A program made the position numbers and the translations under genes. The notes below the pieces were generated by a model. It was not told the DNA's origin. It ran no database searches and worked only from the letters and a program-made list of their open reading frames with translations. Source: an uncultured Methanosarcinales archaeon (GTDB lineage Archaea; Nanobdellota; Nanobdellia; Woesearchaeales; CALCXY01). From it: a stretch of DNA of 41,634 nucleotides. Shown piece by piece: positions 8,602 through 31,430 of the stretch (positions are counted from its first letter, which is position 1; each line of letters starts with the position of its first letter). The DNA is taken from positions 1 through 41,634 of the forward strand of contig CAYLOA010000007.1 in assembly GCA_964385185.1 (NCBI GenBank), read 5' to 3'.

Positions 8602-9867
8602 CTAAAGCTTCTCCTTACCCATATACCCTCTCAATACTTCAGGTACACCTACTGAGCCATCTTTCTCCTGATAATTCTCTAATATACCTACCATTGCACG
8701 AGAAGTAGCAATAGCAGTATTATTCAAAGTATGAGGATAATATTTTCCATCTCCTTTACGAACTCTAATTCTCAATCGTCTACTTTGCGCTTCAGTCAAA
8801 TTACTAACGGAACATGCTTCAAAATATCCTTTTTTACGAGGACTCCAGACTTCGAGATCAGCACCTTTTGCTTTCAAATCTCCTAAATCTCCTGAGCAAC
8901 TCTCAAAAACCCGAGTCGGCAAACCCAACGATTCAAACAATTCTTTTGAATTCTCTAACAACTCATCATAATATTTCCAGCTATCTTCTGGTTTACAAAT
9001 AATAATCTGTTCAACTTTATTGAATTGATGTGTTCTATACAATCCTTTTTCATCAATCCCATGAGCACCTAATTCTTTTCGAAAACATTGACTAATTCCA
9101 CATAATCGAATAGGCAGATCTTTCTCTTCAATAACCATACCTTTAAACATAGCAATGAGAGGATGCTCTGAAGTTCCAATTAGATACAAATCCTCACCTT
9201 CAATCTTAAAGACCATATCTTTAAAGAATTCAAAATCAACAACACCAGACGTAGCATCTTTATTGATCATAAGAGGCGGTTCAACTAAGGTATATCCTTT
9301 TCTAACCATAAAGTCTACACCATACTTGAGCAAAGCTTGATTTAATTCAGCTAAACTTCCTTTCAAATAAAAGAATCCACCACCACTTACTCGACGAGCA
9401 GCATCAAAATCACAAATATTTAAACTTTCAACAAGTTCGACATGACTCTTCACATCAAAATCAAATTTTCGTGGTGTTCCAATTTTTTCTTTAACAACAT
9501 TCTCTTTATCGCTTTTACCAATCGGAACACTCTTGTGCATAATATTAGGAATCTGTAACATTATTTTCAATATCCTTTCACCAATCTCTTTTTTCTTACT
9601 ATCTACTACTTCCAATTCTGAAGGAATCTTCCCAGCTTGTTTTACTTTTGCAGAAGCATCCTTCCCTTCTTTCTTCAGCTTATTAATTTCCTGAGAAATG
9701 GTATTCCTCTTTGTCCGAATCTCCTGATCTTCCTTAAGGAGCAATGAAAATTCCTCATCTAATTTAAGAACATCATCTACTAACTTAATCTTATCTTCTT
9801 TGAACTTATTCTTGATATTATCCTTTACCTTAACCGGATTCTCTCGTATATATTTTATATCTAACAT
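8602..9867 (-). CDS. serS: Serine--tRNA ligase (canonical, non-methanogen type)
   Basis: MLDIKYIREN, LIGTSEHPL, FRKE...GLYRTHQFNKVEQ, HTLNNTAIATSR. Confidence 0.97.
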   Translation of the reverse strand: MLDIKYIRENPVKVKDNIKNKFKEDKIKLVDDVLKLDEEFSLLLKEDQEIRTKRNTISQEINKLKKEGKDASAKVKQAGKIPSELEVVDSKKKEIGERILKIMLQIPNIMHKSVPIGKSDKENVVKEKIGTPRKFDFDVKSHVELVESLNICDFDAARRVSGGGFFYLKGSLAELNQALLKYGVDFMVRKGYTLVEPPLMINKDATSGVVDFEFFKDMVFKIEGEDLYLIGTSEHPLIAMFKGMVIEEKDLPIRLCGISQCFRKELGAHGIDEKGLYRTHQFNKVEQIIICKPEDSWKYYDELLENSKELFESLGLPTRVFESCSGDLGDLKAKGADLEVWSPRKKGYFEACSVSNLTEAQSRRLRIRVRKGDGKYYPHTLNNTAIATSRAMVGILENYQEKDGSVGVPEVLRGYMGKEKL

Positions 9868-9920
9868 GTTTCTAGGGTTTCTTCAAATATATATAAACCT
9901 TACTTCACAGCAGTCAGTGG

Positions 9921-9967
9921 GAGCTAGCACCACTGCACCCTGTGGGTGCCGGTGGTGGTGCTAGCTC
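9921..9967. other. 47-nt GC-rich hairpin element, copy E1 of the C-TGT-G loop family
   Basis: GAGCTAGCAC-CACT-GCACCC-TGT-GGGTGC-C-GGTG-GTG-GTGCTAGCTC; same architecture as 17231-17277. Confidence 0.75.
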
Positions 9968-9991
9968 AATAATCACGATATGCTCAAAAAA

Positions 9992-10600
9992 TTATTCGAC
10001 TTCATTCACGAATATAAATTCATCAGGCCAATCCTTCTTAATTCTACCATCTTCCATATTAGTTGCAGGCATATAATTATGATGCACCCGAACCATTCGA
10101 GTTAACGGAACTGTCTCCACATTCACTACAGCATTTTTCCCAAATTTCTCAATTAAAAAAGGAATAATTTTACCATTAAACTCTTCACCTAACATCCCTT
10201 CTGATGGAGCATCCAAAATAATAACCAAAGCCAAATGTCCATCCTTCTCTCCTAAATAAGCCAAACTAATAAACTTAGAGTTAAACAGTCTCCATTTAGG
10301 ATCTTTCTCCAATTTATCCATATAATTTTTCATAGTAATCCCAATCTTAAACTTAATAGTATACATTTGTTTAGCCATAAAGATTCCTAAGCGTTCCTCA
10401 TCTGTTGCACAATAATAACGAAGTAACATCTCAGACTCTAATTTCTTCCGTTTACGATTAACAGTCATAACAGGAATTTTAGTTTTCTTAGAAATTTTAT
10501 TATCACTTAATCGAGGATTTCTGATCAATTCTCGAACGATTTTGACTTCTTGATCATCTAACTCCCTCCCACCATTCTTTCCAGAAACCATAATAATCAT
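9992..10600 (-). CDS. Lrp/AsnC-like winged-HTH transcriptional regulator
   Basis: LDDQEVKIVRELIRNPRLSDNKISKKTKIPVMTVNRKRKKLE N-terminal HTH. Confidence 0.8.
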   Translation of the reverse strand: MIIMVSGKNGGRELDDQEVKIVRELIRNPRLSDNKISKKTKIPVMTVNRKRKKLESEMLLRYYCATDEERLGIFMAKQMYTIKFKIGITMKNYMDKLEKDPKWRLFNSKFISLAYLGEKDGHLALVIILDAPSEGMLGEEFNGKIIPFLIEKFGKNAVVNVETVPLTRMVRVHHNYMPATNMEDGRIKKDWPDEFIFVNEVE

Positions 10601-10601
10601 T

Positions 10602-10656
10602 AAATTGTTATATTATATAAGCTTTTCCCATATTAATGTTACATTCATAACAATTT
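10602..10656. promoter_or_regulatory. Putative operator around the regulator's TATA box
   Basis: AAATTGTTAT (10602-10611) / ATAACAATTT (10647-10656) inverted pair; palindrome AATGT-T-ACATT at 10635-10645. Confidence 0.4.
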
Positions 10657-10752
10657 TTAACCAACATATATAATAAGGTGTATTCCTCTGGAATCAGATG
10701 TTTCAACTTGTTCCCCCCCCAGGTTTCTTCAGAAATCCTGCCAAGATCATGT

Positions 10753-11196
10753 ATGTCAGATAAAATCCCAGAGTCACAACCCCCAGAAATTGCTGATTTT
10801 GTTACAGAAGGAGGCCATACAGGAGTGACTGAAAATAGACATCCAGAGGGGTATTCAGATTCATTAATGAGGTGTAAACTTACTCACAACCCTGGAGAAT
10901 TGTTGGATTACAATATAGAAGAAGTTCTTTTAGAAGAAAATGGCGTACCTGTTCCATATATTAAAATTGAAGTTATTGCACAAACAAAAGAGCCATTCTG
11001 TGTTTATTCTACTTTGGTTCCTATGAAGGTAGAACATTTAAGAACTATGAGCAAAATTGCTTTAGAAGTTCCAAAAGCATATGATATACTCAGCACAACT
11101 TACACAACACCAGCTGAAGTTGAAGCAGGTATAGATGATATCAAACAAACAGTAGACTCTTTAGCAGAATATTTCTCACAAGAATTAACCAAGTAA
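10753..11196 (+). CDS. Hypothetical acidic protein
   Basis: ORF open from GTG 10678; ATG 10753 preferred; no recognisable motif. Confidence 0.55.
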   Translation: MSDKIPESQPPEIADFVTEGGHTGVTENRHPEGYSDSLMRCKLTHNPGELLDYNIEEVLLEENGVPVPYIKIEVIAQTKEPFCVYSTLVPMKVEHLRTMSKIALEVPKAYDILSTTYTTPAEVEAGIDDIKQTVDSLAEYFSQELTK

Positions 11197-11610
11197 AACA
11201 ATCTTCTTCCTACCTTCAACAGCTTCAGCCAATTGCTTCCCTAAACTAATTCCAGTCCTAATGGAAACTAATCCACCCTCGCCAGCAACAGCAGTAAACA
11301 AATACCCATCTTCAACAAACACCTTAACTTCTTTTCCTTTCATCACACTACTAAGATACAACAAAACTTTCTCATCTTTTACTTCAGATGTAAATGCAAC
11401 AGGTAAACCTTTACTCTCATCAGTTAATTCTTTAACTTCAATAGAAAGACCAAGTTTCTTCTCTACATCTTCAACCTGTTCACGAACAGCATCAATATCC
11501 TTCCCATCAGCATAGACAACACCTTTGTAAGAAACAACAATCTCTGCCCGAACCTTCCCAGAAAAAGCCTCTTCTATAGACTTAACTGCTAACGAATCAA
11601 TATCCCCCAT
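11185..11610 (-). CDS. Stand-alone protein resembling the C-terminal KH region of archaeal PINA ATPase
   Basis: VEKKLGLSIEVKE and GYLFTAVAGEGGLVSI resemble PINA C-termini from memory; KH GxxG loop absent. Confidence 0.55.
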   Translation of the reverse strand: MGDIDSLAVKSIEEAFSGKVRAEIVVSYKGVVYADGKDIDAVREQVEDVEKKLGLSIEVKELTDESKGLPVAFTSEVKDEKVLLYLSSVMKGKEVKVFVEDGYLFTAVAGEGGLVSIRTGISLGKQLAEAVEGRKKIVLLG

Positions 11611-11641
11611 AAAAACGTTAAAGAATCCTAATTATTTAAAT

Positions 11642-13570
11642 CTAACCAAACAACCCCTTAAAAAACAAAGCAATCCGTTGACCAAATGACACATCTACTA
11701 ATTCAGTATCAACTGAAGTACGAACTTCACCTTGCCCAGTATCATCAGTATACCGAACAATAACATCCATCCCATCACCAACATCACTCCCTTGTAAAGG
11801 AAGCTCAATATCAACATTATCTTGTAAATTATCAATAACAAAATCAACACTACTAGTCCCATCAACAGTTATTACCACATTTGAAACAGTAGAAAAGGCA
11901 CTCTTTCCCACCCGAACCATAAGAGAAAAATCATCATCATATCGAACCGTATTTGGAGCCTCAATAACTTCAACACTAACACCGGCAGCTCCTAACACAT
12001 TTACACTAACATCAAATTTCTCTCCATCAGCCAACACACTAAATGTTTGCTCTCCAGCATCACCTGCAATAGCATTCAAACTCACCTTCTCCTCCTCTGA
12101 AATACCTAAAGGAACCAATTCACAACTACCCAGACAAACCTTAACTTCTCGTGCAGCATTTCCTGTATTCTTAACATCACAGTCAATCGTAACACTCTCA
12201 CCTTCCTTTACGCTATCCGGTCCTGAACAACTAAACTGTAAACCTTTACTAATTTCCTTGAAATCACTCTTCTCAAACTTCTTCCGATAATTTTCAACAG
12301 TACTCCTACTATACACAGGATAGCTACTCTTAGATTCAAATCCTATAGTTGAACTACTATTCCGAGTAGTATACACTCCTACGGGAAAGGTATACACAAA
12401 ACCTTCTTTCAATCCACCTTCCAGTTGAACAGTCCAATAAAATCTTTTCTTCTCCTTTGGCCGAAGTAATACATTTTTCCTAAAATCTTCTAAGACCTTC
12501 ACACCTTTAGTTTGAGTAACATACAAATCAGTAATCACATAATAATCATGTTTATTCTCAACCGTAGCTTCAATCACATTATAACTTCCAAAACCCAAAC
12601 TCTGCTTGAAAGCATTCGCTTTAACCTCCAATAAGGTGGGTAACTTTCCACCAGTAGAGATTATTTCCGACTTAATTCCTAATTCCTCAGTTTCAGCCTC
12701 AATATTAGTCCCCTTCCATCTAAACTTAGTACTCGTAGCATCGGCATCAACTTGTTCTTTGAGTTTAATATGGGGTGCATCAACATATCCATACTCACCA
12801 TAAGTAATATCAAAACCAATCCATCCACTTCCTGGCAACCAAACTTCTGCCCAGGCATGGGGTCCAAAATCATTAAGTTCACCAAAATCAGTATAAGCAT
12901 GTCCAGAAACAAATTTTGCAGGAATACCTACCCCTCGTAGCATGGCAATAAAGAGAGCTGTAATCTCATCACAAACACCTCTTCGATTTTGAATAACCCA
13001 AGAAGCTGTTTGTTGCGCATCTGCTGTTAAACTATCTAAACTGTAATCCACATTATCTTGAATCCAAGATCCAATTTTATAGACAACAACGTATGCATCG
13101 TCTTCTCCACGAGCAAGCTCATTCGCCTTCGCTTTTATCGCAGGATCGTTCACATTAATAATTTTTCCAGCGGCTAAATATTTAGTAACATCACTTGGTA
13201 CGTTTTTCAGGGGAAAAGGTATTTTATTTTTTACTTCTACAAACTTTCCACTCGTTTCAGTCGTCCCACTAACTGAAAATGATTGAGTTAGTTCTGGTCG
13301 TCTCCAACTAAACAATAAACCCTCATCATTAGTTTCAGCTTTTGGACTAATCTGCAAATTACTCACCGTACTTCGCTCATCCTCTCGTGGAAATAAATAC
13401 AAATCTATTGTTAAATCTTGCAATACATGTGAGCCTTTTGTAGGTGTAAATACAATAGAATTCGATATAGTTGTTTTCACAGTAGCACTCTCAGCCAATA
13501 ATATTTCTCTACCTCCAAGAACACTAGTAACTAATAACAGAAATAATAACACGTATAGCCCTTTTTTCAT
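11642..13570 (-). CDS. Secreted/surface transglutaminase-like protein
   Basis: Signal peptide MKKGLYVLLFLLLV; catalytic triad motifs GVCDE, HAWAEV, FDIT; beta-rich C-terminal domains. Confidence 0.85.
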   Translation of the reverse strand: MKKGLYVLLFLLLVTSVLGGREILLAESATVKTTISNSIVFTPTKGSHVLQDLTIDLYLFPREDERSTVSNLQISPKAETNDEGLLFSWRRPELTQSFSVSGTTETSGKFVEVKNKIPFPLKNVPSDVTKYLAAGKIINVNDPAIKAKANELARGEDDAYVVVYKIGSWIQDNVDYSLDSLTADAQQTASWVIQNRRGVCDEITALFIAMLRGVGIPAKFVSGHAYTDFGELNDFGPHAWAEVWLPGSGWIGFDITYGEYGYVDAPHIKLKEQVDADATSTKFRWKGTNIEAETEELGIKSEIISTGGKLPTLLEVKANAFKQSLGFGSYNVIEATVENKHDYYVITDLYVTQTKGVKVLEDFRKNVLLRPKEKKRFYWTVQLEGGLKEGFVYTFPVGVYTTRNSSSTIGFESKSSYPVYSRSTVENYRKKFEKSDFKEISKGLQFSCSGPDSVKEGESVTIDCDVKNTGNAAREVKVCLGSCELVPLGISEEEKVSLNAIAGDAGEQTFSVLADGEKFDVSVNVLGAAGVSVEVIEAPNTVRYDDDFSLMVRVGKSAFSTVSNVVITVDGTSSVDFVIDNLQDNVDIELPLQGSDVGDGMDVIVRYTDDTGQGEVRTSVDTELVDVSFGQRIALFFKGLFG

Positions 13571-13616
13571 CACCGCTTTCAAGATTTAACTTATTTAAAT
13601 CTTGCTAAGAAAATGA

Positions 13617-13700
13617 CGCCGAGGCTGGGATTTGAACCCAGGTATCCGTAAGGAAATAGGATTAGCAATCCTACGCAGTACCAGGCTGTGCCACCTCGGC
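13617..13700 (-). tRNA. tRNA-Ser(GCT)
   Basis: GCCGAGG/CCTCGGC acceptor stem, TAGGA-TTGCTAA-TCCTA anticodon arm, long variable arm, GTTCAAATC T-loop, discriminator G. Confidence 0.97.
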
Positions 13701-13780
13701 ATAGGTAGTCAGAGGCAGGAATTAGTTTTTAAGTGTTTCTAAACAATAACTTTATATACACCCATACCTAAGATATCAAA

Positions 13781-14443
13781 ATGAAGAATGTTATTATAGG
13801 TTTAGCATTATTAGCAGCAATCCTAATCGTTGTCAACGTTAATCCAGGTATTACGGGTGCTGTAACATTATCAGGCGGAGAATGTGATCCAGGATATAAA
13901 GAAATCTATCAATGTGCTTCAGAGAAAGTTATTCAAAGACAATTCCTATTCAAAGATTGCTCAGCAAGATATGATTCCACGTATTGTGGAACAAATGAAG
14001 TCTGCGTTGCAGAAACATCAATTAAAGCATCTTGCAAAACACAAATACCAGAACCAGAGTTTCGAGAAGGATCATTTGAATACGGAAAACATTATTCGAA
14101 ATCCATCGATTTCTACTGGGGATTTCAAAAAGGAATATACACACATCCTTCTTCCAATCCAAGAATGGATGTAGCGTTAACAAGAAGAGCTGGAGATGAA
14201 TTATATGTTAAGCCTAGAATTGGCCACTCAGTAAGATTATTCAAATTTATTGATGATGTCACCTATAACGATTGTATTACAGATAAGAAACAATCTCATG
14301 GAAGAAATCAACCTATCGCTACTAATGAATCAATGTGCTTCCAAACATTAGATGGAGATATGGCAGTAGTCTCAGGAAATTGGGAAAATAACAGATTAGA
14401 AAGATCAGATCTTATCTACTGGCGACTATACCTAGTCGGTTAA
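13781..14443 (+). CDS. Secreted Cys-rich hypothetical protein
   Basis: N-terminal hydrophobic segment followed by ITGAV; several Cys. Confidence 0.75.
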   Translation: MKNVIIGLALLAAILIVVNVNPGITGAVTLSGGECDPGYKEIYQCASEKVIQRQFLFKDCSARYDSTYCGTNEVCVAETSIKASCKTQIPEPEFREGSFEYGKHYSKSIDFYWGFQKGIYTHPSSNPRMDVALTRRAGDELYVKPRIGHSVRLFKFIDDVTYNDCITDKKQSHGRNQPIATNESMCFQTLDGDMAVVSGNWENNRLERSDLIYWRLYLVG

Positions 14444-14494
14444 TTCTAAGGGTTAGGAAACTTTATAAACCGATATCTATTCCTTTTTAAGTAT

Positions 14495-14572
14495 AGCGAG
14501 GTAGGGCAGCTAGGAGTGCCCGGAGGGCTCATAACCCTCAGGTCGGAGGTTCAAATCCTCCCCTCGCTACCA
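14495..14572 (+). tRNA. Initiator tRNA-Met(CAT)
   Basis: A1:U72 pair, GGG/CCC in anticodon stem, CT-CAT-AA loop, encoded CCA, TTTATAAA box upstream. Confidence 0.97.
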
Positions 14573-14880
14573 TTTTTATTCTATTCCTTTTTAGCTTCAA
14601 TGTATCAGCGGTTTTTTTAGCTGATACATTGTACTACTCGGCTGTCGAGCTGGCCGGTCAGTCGGTTCACATCCTCCCCTCGCTACCATTTTTATTCTAT
14701 TCCTTTTTAGCTTCAATGTATCAGCNNNNNNNNNNNNNNNNNNNNNNNNNNNNNNNNNNNNNNNNNNNNNNNNNNNNNNNNNNNNNNNNNNNNNNNNNNN
14801 NNNNNNNNNNNNNNNNNNNNNNNNNCGGTCAGTCGGTTCACATCCTCCCCTCGCTACCATTTTTATTCTATTCCTTTTTA
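14548..14880 (+). repeat. tRNA-linked tandem repeats (116-bp unit) duplicating the tRNA-iMet 3' end
   Basis: GGTTCA[A/C]ATCCTCCCCTCGCTACCATTTTTATTCTATTCCTTTTTA at 14548, 14664 and 14835; spacer contains CAATGTATCAGC/GCTGATACATTG hairpin. Confidence 0.85.
14726..14825. other. Assembly gap (100 N) inside the repeat array
   Basis: N run flanked on both sides by repeat-unit sequence. Confidence 0.99.
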
Positions 14881-14882
14881 CA

Positions 14883-14985
14883 GGGCAACTTCGAGCGTAG
14901 TGAGAACGTTGTCCGTAGGGGTCGACTAACTTTTCAACTTTGTTGAAAATGCTCAGTAACAAAGTTAACTGACATTGTGTAGTCG
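14883..14985. other. Multi-hairpin intergenic element
   Basis: GGGCAAC/GTTGTCC stem; CGACTA/TAGTCG stem enclosing TTTTCAAC-TTT-GTTGAAAA and TCAGTAAC-AAA-GTTAACTGA. Confidence 0.5.
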
Positions 14986-17151
14986 CTATGCAGCCCATCT
15001 AACTCCACTAACATTACCATTATGCCCAAATTGAGGGTTTTGCGCTCTAACAACACTACCATACCTTCCTGTTGTTCCAACATCTTTCTTAAAATCTGAA
15101 GTTCCATCTATTAAGCATGATTTAAGATCTCCTGGTGTACATTTGGCCAATCCCCCATTCTCTTTAATCCTATTAAAGAAATAAGGTCCCACCATCTGTC
15201 CATACAAAGTACCAATACTATTCTGTCCTTGATCTGAAGTACTTACAGCTACATCATTACCCTTACATAATTTATCCGCAAAACCTCCCGATTGGCAAGC
15301 TCCTGTAAAGTATAATTCTCTCCCTCCCTTTATATTCTTAGAATATTTTACTAATTCTGAATCATGCAAATATTCTCGTCCATTCTTCAATCCGACTTCA
15401 CTATTATCATTAAAGTTACTAGTTCCATGTGCTGTCAGATAGAGACAAAAGGTATCATTAGCATCAACTTTATTAGCCATTTGAGCTAAAGCTTTTTCCA
15501 GATTAGCTTCACTACCAATATTGCTAAAATCCTGATTTTTCATAGCGTTTCTCAACTGATCTGCACCGCTTGGATAAAATTGACCACTGGGATCCATACT
15601 ATGAGGTCCATTAGGAGTCATTACTATAATATTCTCTTGAGGAATTCCCATCTCCACCATATGATTATGGGCACGAATCATCTCTGAGGTAAACATATCA
15701 TTTGTTGGATACGGACTAAAACTCATGAAATTTCGGTGATGTCGATCAAAACCAGATATTAATATAGCATACTGCTCGGATTGATTTATTCCAGCAACAC
15801 TTGCAACATCATAAGCTCCTCTTTCTATAGTATCAGCTACACTAGCTACCATATCATTTCCAAATTCTTTAGCATCATCCAAGTATTTACCTTCTGAAAA
15901 ATAACTTTTAACATCATCAACCATCTCTCCACCAAAAGCATACTTTCCTTTATCCCATCCATCTTTGACTCCATCAACTACAGAATCTTTAGTATCTCCA
16001 GCAAAAGCCCAACTTTGTTTACCCATATCTTTCACATCAGAAAACAAAGCTCCACTTTTTGCATAGTGATACAGCCCTTGAAATACTCGTCCATCCCATA
16101 ATGCCTTCCCGGCCATAATTTTTTGTTTAACACCTTCATATTCATTTTTAACATCCTTAACTAATTCACCATCAGTCACATAAGCAACTCCATTTTTTAC
16201 TTTTCCCGGAACTGCTTTCACATCCTCCATCTCAATATCTTTTACATCACTAACAACATCTTGAATTCCATGACTTCCTAAACTCAAACTAATATAATCT
16301 CCTGCAAAGTTATTCACAAAACCTGCACTGGTTGCAACTAATCCTGCCATTCCAGCCCTTATTCTTCCAGAGGTATTCTTCTTAATCTTCTCAGCCCCTT
16401 TTTCAGCCATTCCAGCAATCCACTTGGTCCCAATCATACTACCATATCCTTTCATACCAATAGCTCCATCGATAATATATGGCTGAACTTTTGATCGATA
16501 AAAATCATCATCTTCTAAATTCTTAATACCCTTACGTATCTTCCGTTTAGTCAAATTTTTCTGCAAAGCTCCATTTTTAATTCCTAAAACTTTCTCAGCA
16601 CCTTTCTTCAAATACATTCTTTTATCTACAAAGCCACTTACTTTATCTGCAACATAATCATTACTCAAAACTTCCTTACCTGTATAGCCTGCTGCCCCTA
16701 ATCCAAATCGTAATCCTAACAAAGCAGGATAGATTCCAGTCGCAACTGCACCTCCATAAAAGAGTCCAGTTGCCAAATTACCTTTACCTAAAAACTTCCC
16801 TTTTTTAGCTCCAGCTTTATACTCAGACCAATCGACCTTATCACTAACCAAATTTTTTCCAGCAGTATACACTTTTTGAACATCTTTAATGGGATTTGCA
16901 GCTCTAAGACCTTCAACAACAGCCTTTCCTGCAGTAGGCGCAGCTTTCACAATACCTTCTAATCCTAATTTAGCACCTTGATAACCTATATTTGCAGCTC
17001 CAGCACCAATATCATATCCAGTACTCAAGGCACTCTTTCCAGCACCAACTACTTTAGAAACTAATCCCTCCTTATTCTTTCTACTACGACTTCTTGTCTT
17101 CCTTTTCCGTTTTGCAGGTACACCCCAACCTACAGCACTAGCTAAGCTCAT
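14986..17151 (-). CDS. Large protein with C-terminal clan CD (C13 legumain/caspase-like) peptidase domain
   Basis: YAILISG, LYLTAHG (His) and ACQSGGF (Cys) motifs; N-terminal ~450 aa basic, Gly/Ala-rich and amphipathic. Confidence 0.75.
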   Translation of the reverse strand: MSLASAVGWGVPAKRKRKTRSRSRKNKEGLVSKVVGAGKSALSTGYDIGAGAANIGYQGAKLGLEGIVKAAPTAGKAVVEGLRAANPIKDVQKVYTAGKNLVSDKVDWSEYKAGAKKGKFLGKGNLATGLFYGGAVATGIYPALLGLRFGLGAAGYTGKEVLSNDYVADKVSGFVDKRMYLKKGAEKVLGIKNGALQKNLTKRKIRKGIKNLEDDDFYRSKVQPYIIDGAIGMKGYGSMIGTKWIAGMAEKGAEKIKKNTSGRIRAGMAGLVATSAGFVNNFAGDYISLSLGSHGIQDVVSDVKDIEMEDVKAVPGKVKNGVAYVTDGELVKDVKNEYEGVKQKIMAGKALWDGRVFQGLYHYAKSGALFSDVKDMGKQSWAFAGDTKDSVVDGVKDGWDKGKYAFGGEMVDDVKSYFSEGKYLDDAKEFGNDMVASVADTIERGAYDVASVAGINQSEQYAILISGFDRHHRNFMSFSPYPTNDMFTSEMIRAHNHMVEMGIPQENIIVMTPNGPHSMDPSGQFYPSGADQLRNAMKNQDFSNIGSEANLEKALAQMANKVDANDTFCLYLTAHGTSNFNDNSEVGLKNGREYLHDSELVKYSKNIKGGRELYFTGACQSGGFADKLCKGNDVAVSTSDQGQNSIGTLYGQMVGPYFFNRIKENGGLAKCTPGDLKSCLIDGTSDFKKDVGTTGRYGSVVRAQNPQFGHNGNVSGVRWAA

Positions 17152-17230
17152 TATAAGTATAACTCCATATATTCTTTAAAGCATATCTATATAGAAAATA
17201 TAGGAATTTTGAGTAATTTTACTTCATTAG

Positions 17231-17277
17231 CAGCCACCACAACTGCTCACTGTGTGAGCCAGTTGTTGTGGTGGCTG
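17231..17277. other. 47-nt GC-rich hairpin element, copy E2
   Basis: CAGCCACCAC-AACT-GCTCAC-TGT-GTGAGC-C-AGTT-GTT-GTGGTGGCTG. Confidence 0.75.
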
Positions 17278-17337: not shown

Positions 17338-17985
17338 ATGTTAATTGCAGGTATAGAAGAAGCAGGCCGTGGTCCAGTAATAGGACCTATGGTCATGGTA
17401 GGAGTATTAGTAAATGAAAAAGATCAAGAAAAACTAAGATCTTTAGGAGCTAAAGACTCAAAACTACTAACTCCCAGAACAAGAGAAATTCTCTATGAAC
17501 AAATCACAAATATCGTAAAGGCATACGAAGTTAAAATCCTAACCAATCAAGACATAGACAACGCTCTAAACGATCCAGACAATAATCTAAACAACCTCGA
17601 AGCTCAAACCTCTGCAGAACTCATAGACAAACTACAGCCAGACAAAGCAATCGTTGACTGCCCTTCTACAAACATAGCAGCATATAGAGACTACATAAAA
17701 TCACTATTAACAAAGAAAATAGAAATCATAGCAGAACATAAAGCGGACATAACCTACCCAGTCGTCTCCGTAGCTTCTATTATTGCTAAAGTAATTAGAG
17801 ACCAAGAAATTGAAAAATTAAAGAAGAAATACAACATTCAATTCGGCTCTGGCTATCCTGCAGATGAAAGAACAAGAGAATTTCTAAAGAAAAATTACAA
17901 CAAATACCCTATTTTCAGAAAAACATGGTCAACCTACAAGAAGGTAATTGAAGCAAAAAAACAGACAGATTTGGCTAATTTTTAA
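17338..17985 (+). CDS. rnhB: Ribonuclease HII
   Basis: GIEEAGRGPVIGPM, KDSK, HKAD, ASIIAKV.RD, GSGYP, C-terminal PIP box QTDLANF; ATG 17338 after TTTTTATA box. Confidence 0.95.
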   Translation: MLIAGIEEAGRGPVIGPMVMVGVLVNEKDQEKLRSLGAKDSKLLTPRTREILYEQITNIVKAYEVKILTNQDIDNALNDPDNNLNNLEAQTSAELIDKLQPDKAIVDCPSTNIAAYRDYIKSLLTKKIEIIAEHKADITYPVVSVASIIAKVIRDQEIEKLKKKYNIQFGSGYPADERTREFLKKNYNKYPIFRKTWSTYKKVIEAKKQTDLANF

Positions 17986-24099: not shown

Positions 24100-24840
24100 A
24101 TGAATAAGCGAGAAAAAATAATACAACTGATCAAACAAGATAAATCAATAAATCATATATCCAGAACACTTGAGGTAGGAAAATCCACCATTTACTACCA
24201 TTACAAAAAGATCAAAGGCAGAAAAATCAAAGAAGTGAAGATTAATGGCACAGATGACATGATTGGTGAATTTATAGGATTATTTGCAGGAGATGGGTGT
24301 TTTTACAAGGCAAAGAATTACCTTTATAGAATATATTTGATTTTTAATATCACCGAAAAGAATTTTGTTTTAGAAACTAAAGATTTACTAACAAAATTAT
24401 TTGATAAATCACCATCTATGTATAGAAGCCTAAATACGTTGATTCTTTTATATAGATCAAGAGACATATTTGATTTCATAATGTCCTATTTGCAGTGGAG
24501 TCCATATAAAAGAAAGGCTCATACAATTTGCCTGAGGAATCACAACCATTCAAGAGCGTTCAAAATTGGTTTCCTCCGTGGAAATGTAGACAGTGATGGT
24601 CACATTTCAAAAAATGTAATCAGTTTTGCTTCCTCCTCTCCATATCTGATTGATGATATTCGAAAGTTCCTTTCAGATTTAAATATCCAACATAAATATA
24701 GAGAGTATGAAGAAAGGAGAACAAATAGGGTAAATATGCATCATGTTAGAATTCTAAAAGAAGATAGAACGAAATTTATGTTATTAATCAAACCAAGAGA
24801 ATTGAAAAATTTAAAAAAGTATGCGCCGGCTGGGATTTGA
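24100..24840 (+). CDS. HTH-LAGLIDADG endonuclease-like protein
   Basis: FIGLFAGDG and FLRGNVDSDG motifs; HTH INHISRTLEVGKSTIYYH; GGAGGT SD; stop codon lies antisense within tRNA-Gly T-loop. Confidence 0.85.
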   Translation: MNKREKIIQLIKQDKSINHISRTLEVGKSTIYYHYKKIKGRKIKEVKINGTDDMIGEFIGLFAGDGCFYKAKNYLYRIYLIFNITEKNFVLETKDLLTKLFDKSPSMYRSLNTLILLYRSRDIFDFIMSYLQWSPYKRKAHTICLRNHNHSRAFKIGFLRGNVDSDGHISKNVISFASSSPYLIDDIRKFLSDLNIQHKYREYEERRTNRVNMHHVRILKEDRTKFMLLIKPRELKNLKKYAPAGI

Positions 24841-24920
24841 ACCCAGATAGATGGCTATCGACTTTTCCGAAAATTTCGGAAAATTGGAAGGCCACAGTCA
24901 TGCCATTAGACCACCGGCGC
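24822..24920 (-). tRNA. tRNA-Gly(TCC) with 28-nt intron at 37/38 (24857-24884)
   Basis: GCGCCGG/CCGGCGC acceptor stem; GTGGC-CTTCCA^intron^A-GCCAT; CTGGG-TTCAAAT-CCCAG. Confidence 0.93.
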
Positions 24921-31304: not shown

Positions 31305-31346
31305 AGTCTCACCATCATTTAAAAAAGTATCGTATGGGAAAAAATA

Positions 31347-31430
31347 CTACTGGACGTTGCCCTTATTTTTCGGCTAATGGTCCGAAAAATAGAAGGGTAG
31401 GCTCACTGTGTGAGCCACCAAGTCCAGTAG
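31347..31430. other. Three-way-junction element containing the C-TGT-G hairpin, copy E3
   Basis: CTACTGGAC/GTCCAGTAG outer stem; TGCCCTT-ATTTTTCGG/CCGAAAAAT-AG-AAGGGTA arm; GGCTCAC-TGT-GTGAGCC arm with 16 nt identical to E2. Confidence 0.7.

Follow-up and report, generated by a model that had tools for sequence, protein, structure and literature searches.

A lineage-specific mosaic of GC-rich hairpin repeats in a Woesearchaeal genome, probably acting as single-stranded DNA

Two hairpins and their genomic family

We analyzed a stretch of 41,634 nt (hereafter the window), positions 1 to 41,634 of contig CAYLOA010000007.1 in the assembly GCA_964385185.1 of an uncultured archaeon, deposited under Methanosarcinales and placed by its GTDB lineage in the Woesearchaeales. 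It carries two 47-nt hairpins, E1 and E2, which differ in sequence and share one fold. We read them, with a probability of roughly 0.6, as long palindromic units standing alone (solo units) within a lineage-specific mosaic system that resembles the repetitive extragenic palindromes (REPs) and bacterial interspersed mosaic elements (BIMEs) and acts as single-stranded DNA (ssDNA), not as RNA genes. We favor this reading because the anatomy of the units matches that of REP/BIME and because their replication-linked orientation matches that of IS200/IS605-type elements. The relevant features of the window are listed below, where modules A, B2, and C are the building blocks of the system and CM stands for covariance model.

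9921-9967, + strand: E1, a solo module C (the long hairpin unit); CM score 71.7 bits, E 4.4e-19
17231-17277, + strand: E2, a solo module C, oriented like E1; CM score 69.4 bits, E 2.3e-18
31340-31430, - strand: B2-A, a B2 linker hairpin plus a short A hairpin; third member of the mosaic system in the window
9887-9897, - strand: TATA box of serS, context only, outside the repeat; kept, without the hairpin, in a genome of the same genus (G001)

As an earlier note on this DNA had described, E1 and E2 both fold into a 10-bp stem, a 3-nt 3' bulge, a 4-bp helix, a bulged C, a 6-bp stem, and a TGT loop. The fold of E1 reaches -37.0 kcal/mol on the + strand (z -5.2 relative to dinucleotide shuffles) and -34.0 on the - strand (z -7.0), that of E2 -31.8 and -31.1 (z -4.5 on both strands), and in each of the four cases 0 of 200 shuffles folded as well. 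The two sequences differ at 14 of their 47 positions. Twelve of these make up six compensated pairs (1-47, 5-43, 7-41, 11-37 or 11-34, 17-27, and 19-25), in agreement with the claim that the differences preserve pairing, and the other two fall in the bulge/wobble region. The G.U pair attributed to the + strand of E1 is also present, with T at column 16 and G at column 33.

A scan for perfect 11-nt GC-rich arms revealed five further look-alikes on other contigs. When the seven copies were aligned, 9 of the 17 pairs had changed on both sides and none was broken. We built a CM from these copies and ran it on the whole genome (1.297 Mb in 85 contigs, scored 100% complete, about 90% coding). It identified 25 copies of the 47-nt module C, with E-values from 2e-19 to 3.6e-7, along with reverse-strand echoes and partial matches limited to the top stem. 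The further covarying copies that the earlier note had proposed to search for are thus there, and the architecture of E1 and E2 holds in every one of the 25. Across them, 96.2% of 424 cells pair (77.8 +/- 1.2 in shuffles) and 11 of the 17 pairs show changes on both sides; these values were attained by 0 of 500 shuffles, and slid registers gave at most 62.4%. The four pairs of the 4-bp helix can form in 25/25 copies, and pair 16-33 covaries (TA in 13 copies, TG in 9, AT in 2, CG in 1). The bulged triplet always copies its neighbor (GTG GTG, GTT GTT, or GTA GTA), and the bulge can therefore take two registers: the alternative one, in which the stem has 13 bp and the triplet bulge is moved, is equally pairable, and both covary.

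Not every detail reported for E1 and E2 extends to the family. The motif TACTTCA does precede both hairpins, but it is found at 2 of the 25 copies and is not a family feature. As for known families, a search of the whole window with Rfam at gathering scores returned three tRNAs only, and relaxing the threshold to E up to 10 at five loci returned only noise, the best of it scoring 19.6 bits where the gathering score is 80. Nor was an IS200/IS605 end or a transposase found, in line with the suggestion that the hairpins match no known family.

A mosaic of modules

The basic unit of the system is a GC-rich stem of free sequence with an invariant C-TGT-G / C-ACA-G triloop. It comes in a short form (module A) or, as module C, sits atop a stem of triplet repeats that is interrupted by two bulges, one of 1 nt and a one-sided one of 3 nt. 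Module A is a short ACA-triloop hairpin (GGNNNNC-ACA-GNNNNCC), i.e., the reverse complement of the top of C, and its 5' flank is a variable purine-rich stretch. A and C are joined by one of two alternative linkers, B1 or B2, of which B1 is a conserved linker hairpin, CTCGCAGTC-TTWC-GACTGCGAG. Seven of the C copies are part of A-B1-C composites and two of A-B2-C composites, four loci have two C copies head to head at 0-18 nt from each other, and eight copies are solo, E1 and E2 included. A census based on regular expressions and BLAST added loci with A-B but no C, about 13 of them of the A-B1 type and about 10 of the A-B2 type. In total, the genome has about 55 GC-rich core hairpins, nearly all of them intergenic. 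Among perfect 6-bp-stem triloops, the loops ACA (45) and TGT (39) are the most frequent, any other loop being found at most 31 times. Two A-B2 units lie in direct orientation 5 kb apart (C15:17890-17964 and C15:22890-22960; here and below, contigs of this genome are written as C and a number). One composite has, as read by eye, a Cys-rich frame that starts at an ATG preceding module A. We rejected a coding reading because the variation follows base pairing, not amino acids, and because many copies have no ATG.

Orientation and genomic placement

The orientation of the units is locked to the compositional asymmetry of the DNA strands, not to the direction of the genes. GC skew is strong in this genome, at about +/-0.1 to 0.3, and its sign does not change within a contig; contig means range from -0.26 to +0.40, and the + strand of the window is at about -0.2. 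As only 731 of 1244 genes (58.8%) of a crude open reading frame (ORF) map, on which the placement of the units also rests, are on the G-rich strand, gene orientation does not account for most of this skew. For each solo unit, we compared the strand bearing the ACA-loop form with the mean skew of the contig. The ACA-loop form is on the G-rich strand in 29 of 31 solo units (A-B1 12/13, A-B2 9/10, solo C 8/8), which gives p = 4.6e-7 against an expectation of 0.5 and 1.8e-5 against the 58.8% share of genes. Four units of uncertain type are outside this count and would change it to 31/35. In regions between tandem genes, the rule is obeyed by 14/14 units, with the genes on the G-rich (6) or on the C-rich (8) strand. 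It is obeyed by E1, E2, and the B2-A unit as well; in E1, for example, the + strand bears the TGT-loop form and the minus strand, which is the G-rich one, bears the ACA-loop form.

The 25 C copies are all intergenic. The solo units are found between divergent genes (17/31) or tandem genes (14/31) and never between convergent ones (0/31). Most are 45-120 nt away from the start codons beside them, which puts them just outside the region of the TATA box and the B recognition element (BRE).

Turnover at orthologous sites

Modules are exchanged at orthologous sites, and a single step can suffice to replace an entire stem top. In metagenome relatives with 71-78% identity, module C is found exactly where our genome has A-B1 or B2-A, with aligned flanks, in 3/3 comparisons. 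At two further orthologous loci C and A are conserved and B1 is replaced by B2, at another the composite is inverted, and at yet another C has gained one triplet on each arm. A case of such replacement comes from a close strain: over 512 nt (C19:1180-1691) there are 12 differences, of which 9 are in the 16-nt stem top, on both arms, and the new stem top is identical to that of another copy in the genome. Since the whole top was replaced, much of the seemingly compensatory signal is better attributed to cassette exchange between copies than to paired point mutations. On the metagenome stretch L071, at about 270-300 (a relative of C10:22024-22376), part of the 3' end of a tRNA gene recurs about 90 nt downstream (cctcctctccacat). 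The arrangement resembles an attachment-site duplication and lies beside a repeat composite that is inverted relative to our genome.

Distribution in other genomes and metagenomes

No comparable CM match was found in 40 relatives, including G001, which is of the same genus and 77% complete. The A-B1 junction pattern, present 21 times in our genome, gave no match in 400 other genomes that span 258 genera of the order, and the reversed control likewise gave 0. We also searched for a 20-base hairpin pattern in a species collection, in viral contigs, and in metagenomes. The viral contigs gave 0 matches, and the two matches in the species collection, both in actinobacterial contigs with 68-69% GC, were taken as chance. 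Of the 37 stretches that the metagenomes yielded, 23 match our genome at 98.9% identity or more, 10 come from relatives with 71-94% identity, and 4 are unrelated (L036, L037, L039, and L043). G001 is about 71% identical and its synteny is broken at the loci of E1 and E2, so that no clean empty site can be read there. Our literature searches turned up no account of repeats of this kind from Woesearchaeota or DPANN.

Two weak 92-nt matches in G027, a genome of another family of the order, are not module C but a different, branched element (L031 1501-1592, - strand, and L032 1501-1592, + strand). Its closing stem, CAACAYCACCACTGGC ... GCCAGTWGTGGTGWTGTTGC, encloses two other hairpins and resembles, by its CACCAC/GTGGTG composition, the triplet stem of module C. 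This element may represent a distant cousin family.

Surroundings of the elements in the window

The genes adjoining E1, E2, and the B2-A unit are ordinary. E1 is 25 nt beyond the stop codon of the gene (9992-10600, - strand) of a winged-helix regulator and 54 nt upstream of the start of serS (8602-9867, - strand). The sequence TATATAAA does lie 24 nt before E1, as the earlier note had it, but it is the promoter of the leaderless serS on the minus strand. Its TATA box is 22 nt upstream of the serS ATG and has been kept in G001, which has no hairpin after it. E2 lies in the spacer of two divergent genes, one of them C13-peptidase-like (14986-17151, - strand) and the other coding for RNase HII (17338-17985, + strand). 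The product of the former has 721 aa and a single Pfam match, a weak one, to a C13 peptidase domain (residues 493-657); its N-terminal 490 residues are unassigned. The core hairpin of the B2-A unit is at 31401-31415 (GGCTCAC TGT GTGAGCC on the + strand), an outer stem, CTACTGGAC / GTCCAGTAG, closes the unit, and on its two sides are a divergent ZIP transporter gene and a DUF4145 gene. Elsewhere in the window, Rfam identified a 99-nt tRNA at 24822-24920 (- strand, 52.7 bits) that ARAGORN missed. It is probably an intron-containing archaeal tRNA, and an inverted repeat at 24852-24894 falls within it.

Candidate enzymes

The genome has five tyrosine-recombinase matches. One is a divergent ORF (C6:3-983, - strand, 31.8 bits) at 210 nt from a head-to-head C pair (C6:1193-1312), which is itself adjoined by a tRNA gene (a tRNA-like stretch near C6:1350-1430). 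Another is an integrase fragment of 39 aa (C6:15681-15758) beside another mosaic cluster and a tRNA. This ORF and this fragment may be remnants of integrated elements. We also considered a REPtron-like arrangement and rejected it: the genes between nearby units encode undecaprenyl-diphosphate synthase, aIF5A, a SpoIIM-like protein, and one protein without family, i.e., housekeeping functions with no candidate enzyme. Searches with PF02407 and PF04986 gave no match, but their controls matched no genome either, which makes them uninformative.

Interpretation and alternative explanations

If the units are indeed REP/BIME-like, each of them would act and propagate as folded ssDNA on one replication strand, as the ends of IS200/IS605 and REPs do. 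A protein would recognize it by its shape, made of the triloop and the bulges. The compensatory pattern would then mostly result from the copying or exchange of both arms together, by gene conversion or palindrome correction. Exchange of arms would be constrained by the requirement to stay foldable, with no selection acting on an RNA.

Several observations weigh against this interpretation. Six-frame searches of the 85 contigs gave 0 matches to Y1/RAYT (PF01797), although a gene could have been missed; the control was positive in 6/14 genomes. TnpB/OrfB_IS605 (PF01385) was not found in the genome, and the PF07282 zinc ribbon gave a single match of 19.8 bits, below the cut-off. Hence, the enzyme that defines REP systems is missing or unrecognizable here. 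There is no GTAG/CGTC tag at the foot of the hairpins, and the columns flanking the stem are not conserved. REPs are placed at the 3' ends of genes, unlike the solo units with their divergent and tandem regions. Composites follow the skew rule less (A-B1-C 5/7, A-B2-C 0/2), as expected from the joining of two oppositely oriented units. That the G-rich strand is the template of the lagging strand is an assumption. The excess of wobble pairs among the C copies, 16 T.G on the TGT-form strand versus 4 A.C/C.A, concerns what is in solo copies the C-rich strand, and not the one expected to be active by analogy with IS200/IS605. Finally, no empty site was found that would define insertion, target duplication, and the exact boundaries of the elements: every orthologous site examined carried some module. 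The constant presence of a module fits long-lived functional sites as well as mobility.

An alternative is that the units are promoter-region DNA elements selected by the host. GC-rich palindromes in AT-rich spacers could insulate or tune the neighboring, often divergent, leaderless promoters, by cruciform extrusion or by binding an architectural protein, and any stable module would serve. The absence of solo units from convergent regions speaks for it, as do their position just beyond the TATA/BRE region and the retention of a module while its type changes, in the three comparisons with 71-78% relatives and in the two linker swaps. We nevertheless regard it as unlikely as the principal explanation: a symmetric cruciform accounts neither for the skew lock nor for one-sided bulges, the family was not found in G001 or in 399 other genomes of the order that presumably have comparable promoters, and the gene map is only a crude one of ORFs. 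It is compatible with a mobile origin, the two not being exclusive.

Less probable still is that the hairpins are small structured RNAs, or parts of RNAs, selected for their structure and transcribed from the TGT-form strand, sometimes through a bidirectional TATA box. The earlier note had left the choice between a small RNA and a REP-like ssDNA hairpin, and it is the second option that fits. The covariation is strong, no pair of the inner stem is broken, the wobbles favor the TGT-form strand, and a TATA box is found about 18-27 nt 5' of the hairpin in E1, C28:12317, C11:28124, C4:55057, and C19:8049. Yet, in four of these (E1, C28, C11, and C4) a divergent gene has its start codon 43-58 nt from the hairpin, and by its position the TATA box serves that gene (confirmed by comparison with G001 for E1 only). 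Head-to-head pairs leave no space for promoters. Orientations are mixed relative to genes and track the skew instead, no conserved flank follows the hairpin, and no Rfam family matches. A conserved RNA gene would not be expected to turn over by cassette exchange or to be missing from congeners. Taken together, the mixed orientations, the lack of promoter room in the pairs, the assignment of the TATA box to serS, and the tracking of the skew leave the RNA option without support. No T-run follows the hairpins, which counts against the RNA option; a reading as terminators was rejected on the same ground.

We see very little chance that the hairpins are folded single-strand recombination sites of a tyrosine recombinase, akin to attC sites, in which the bulges on one strand would set the choice of strand. 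The conserved structure with free sequence, the bulges restricted to one arm, and the five recombinase matches, one of them close to a C pair and one fragment beside a mosaic cluster, would suit such sites. However, the core boxes of attC (RYYYAAC / GTTRRRY) were not seen in the 25 copies, of which only about a third have AAC/GTT. The copies are dispersed and not arranged in cassette arrays, the genes that they flank are housekeeping ones, and integrases are common beside tRNA genes for unrelated reasons.

Within the REP/BIME-like reading, we tentatively propose a more specific version, as one possibility, in which the system is an archaeal counterpart of REP/BIME that works without Y1/RAYT: a ssDNA hairpin specific to one replication strand, recognized by its shape (the C-ACA-G triloop plus one-sided bulges), that settles beside promoters. 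Copying and shuffling would then depend on a class of proteins not yet linked to such repeats or on template switching at the replication fork. Were this so, the system would be part of a new class of genome-structuring elements in Archaea. A strand-locked repeat of conserved structure and without a recognizable mobilizing enzyme, in the reduced genome of a DPANN archaeon, raises the question of what maintains and shuffles it. In practice, such a repeat offers a ready marker for the orientation of replication strands in draft archaeal genomes. It also carries a warning for the discovery of RNA genes, since perfect covariation most likely reflects here the maintenance of palindromes at the level of DNA.

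Comparison with known systems

The integron attC sites are recognized as folded single strands, with extrahelical bases on one strand. Our hairpins share these one-strand extrahelical bases and the conservation of structure with free sequence, but R/L core boxes were not seen in them, they form no cassette arrays, and no intI-type gene adjoins them. [quoted passage not shown] They differ in that we saw no target-site duplication and no terminal inverted repeats around a fixed body, empty sites being unavailable, and in that modules recombine freely here and hairpins occur alone. In a census of MITEs, one Woesearchaeal genome is among the densest of Archaea, with 105 elements per Mb, which the available text counts and does not describe (PMC11602168).

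With the subterminal hairpins of IS200/IS605 and their ORF-less derivatives, the system would share an active form as ssDNA hairpin, and it has in common with them an orientation biased relative to replication; these elements insert oriented to the template of the lagging strand (PMC5027513). Here, though, no tnpA or tnpB was found in the genome, no pair of left and right ends bounds a body, and no conserved target tetranucleotide was seen. For Archaea, the parts of PMC6006769 at hand report only IS200-type Y1 proteins. In these parts and in those of PMC3333891, where Archaea are absent, REP/BIME-type repeats and domesticated transposases are bacterial only.

The closest likeness is to the REP/BIME of enterobacteria and pseudomonads. 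The differences are the lack of any RAYT or other Y1 gene among our matches, the numbers (about 25 long units plus some 30 short core hairpins, where REPs run to hundreds of copies), the 47-nt long unit with its triplet-repeat stem, and the preference for promoter-bearing regions with solo units locked to GC skew. REPs too are short, GC-rich, imperfect palindromes with a mismatch or bulge in the stem, present in many copies, and confined to intergenic DNA, and complementarity is kept between copies that differ. They pair in inverse orientation with alternative linkers while keeping complementarity (PMC3333891), much as the few linkers here join inversely oriented units into 4 head-to-head pairs and 9 A-B-C composites. 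In both systems, the composition of a locus varies between strains and the families are specific to their lineage.

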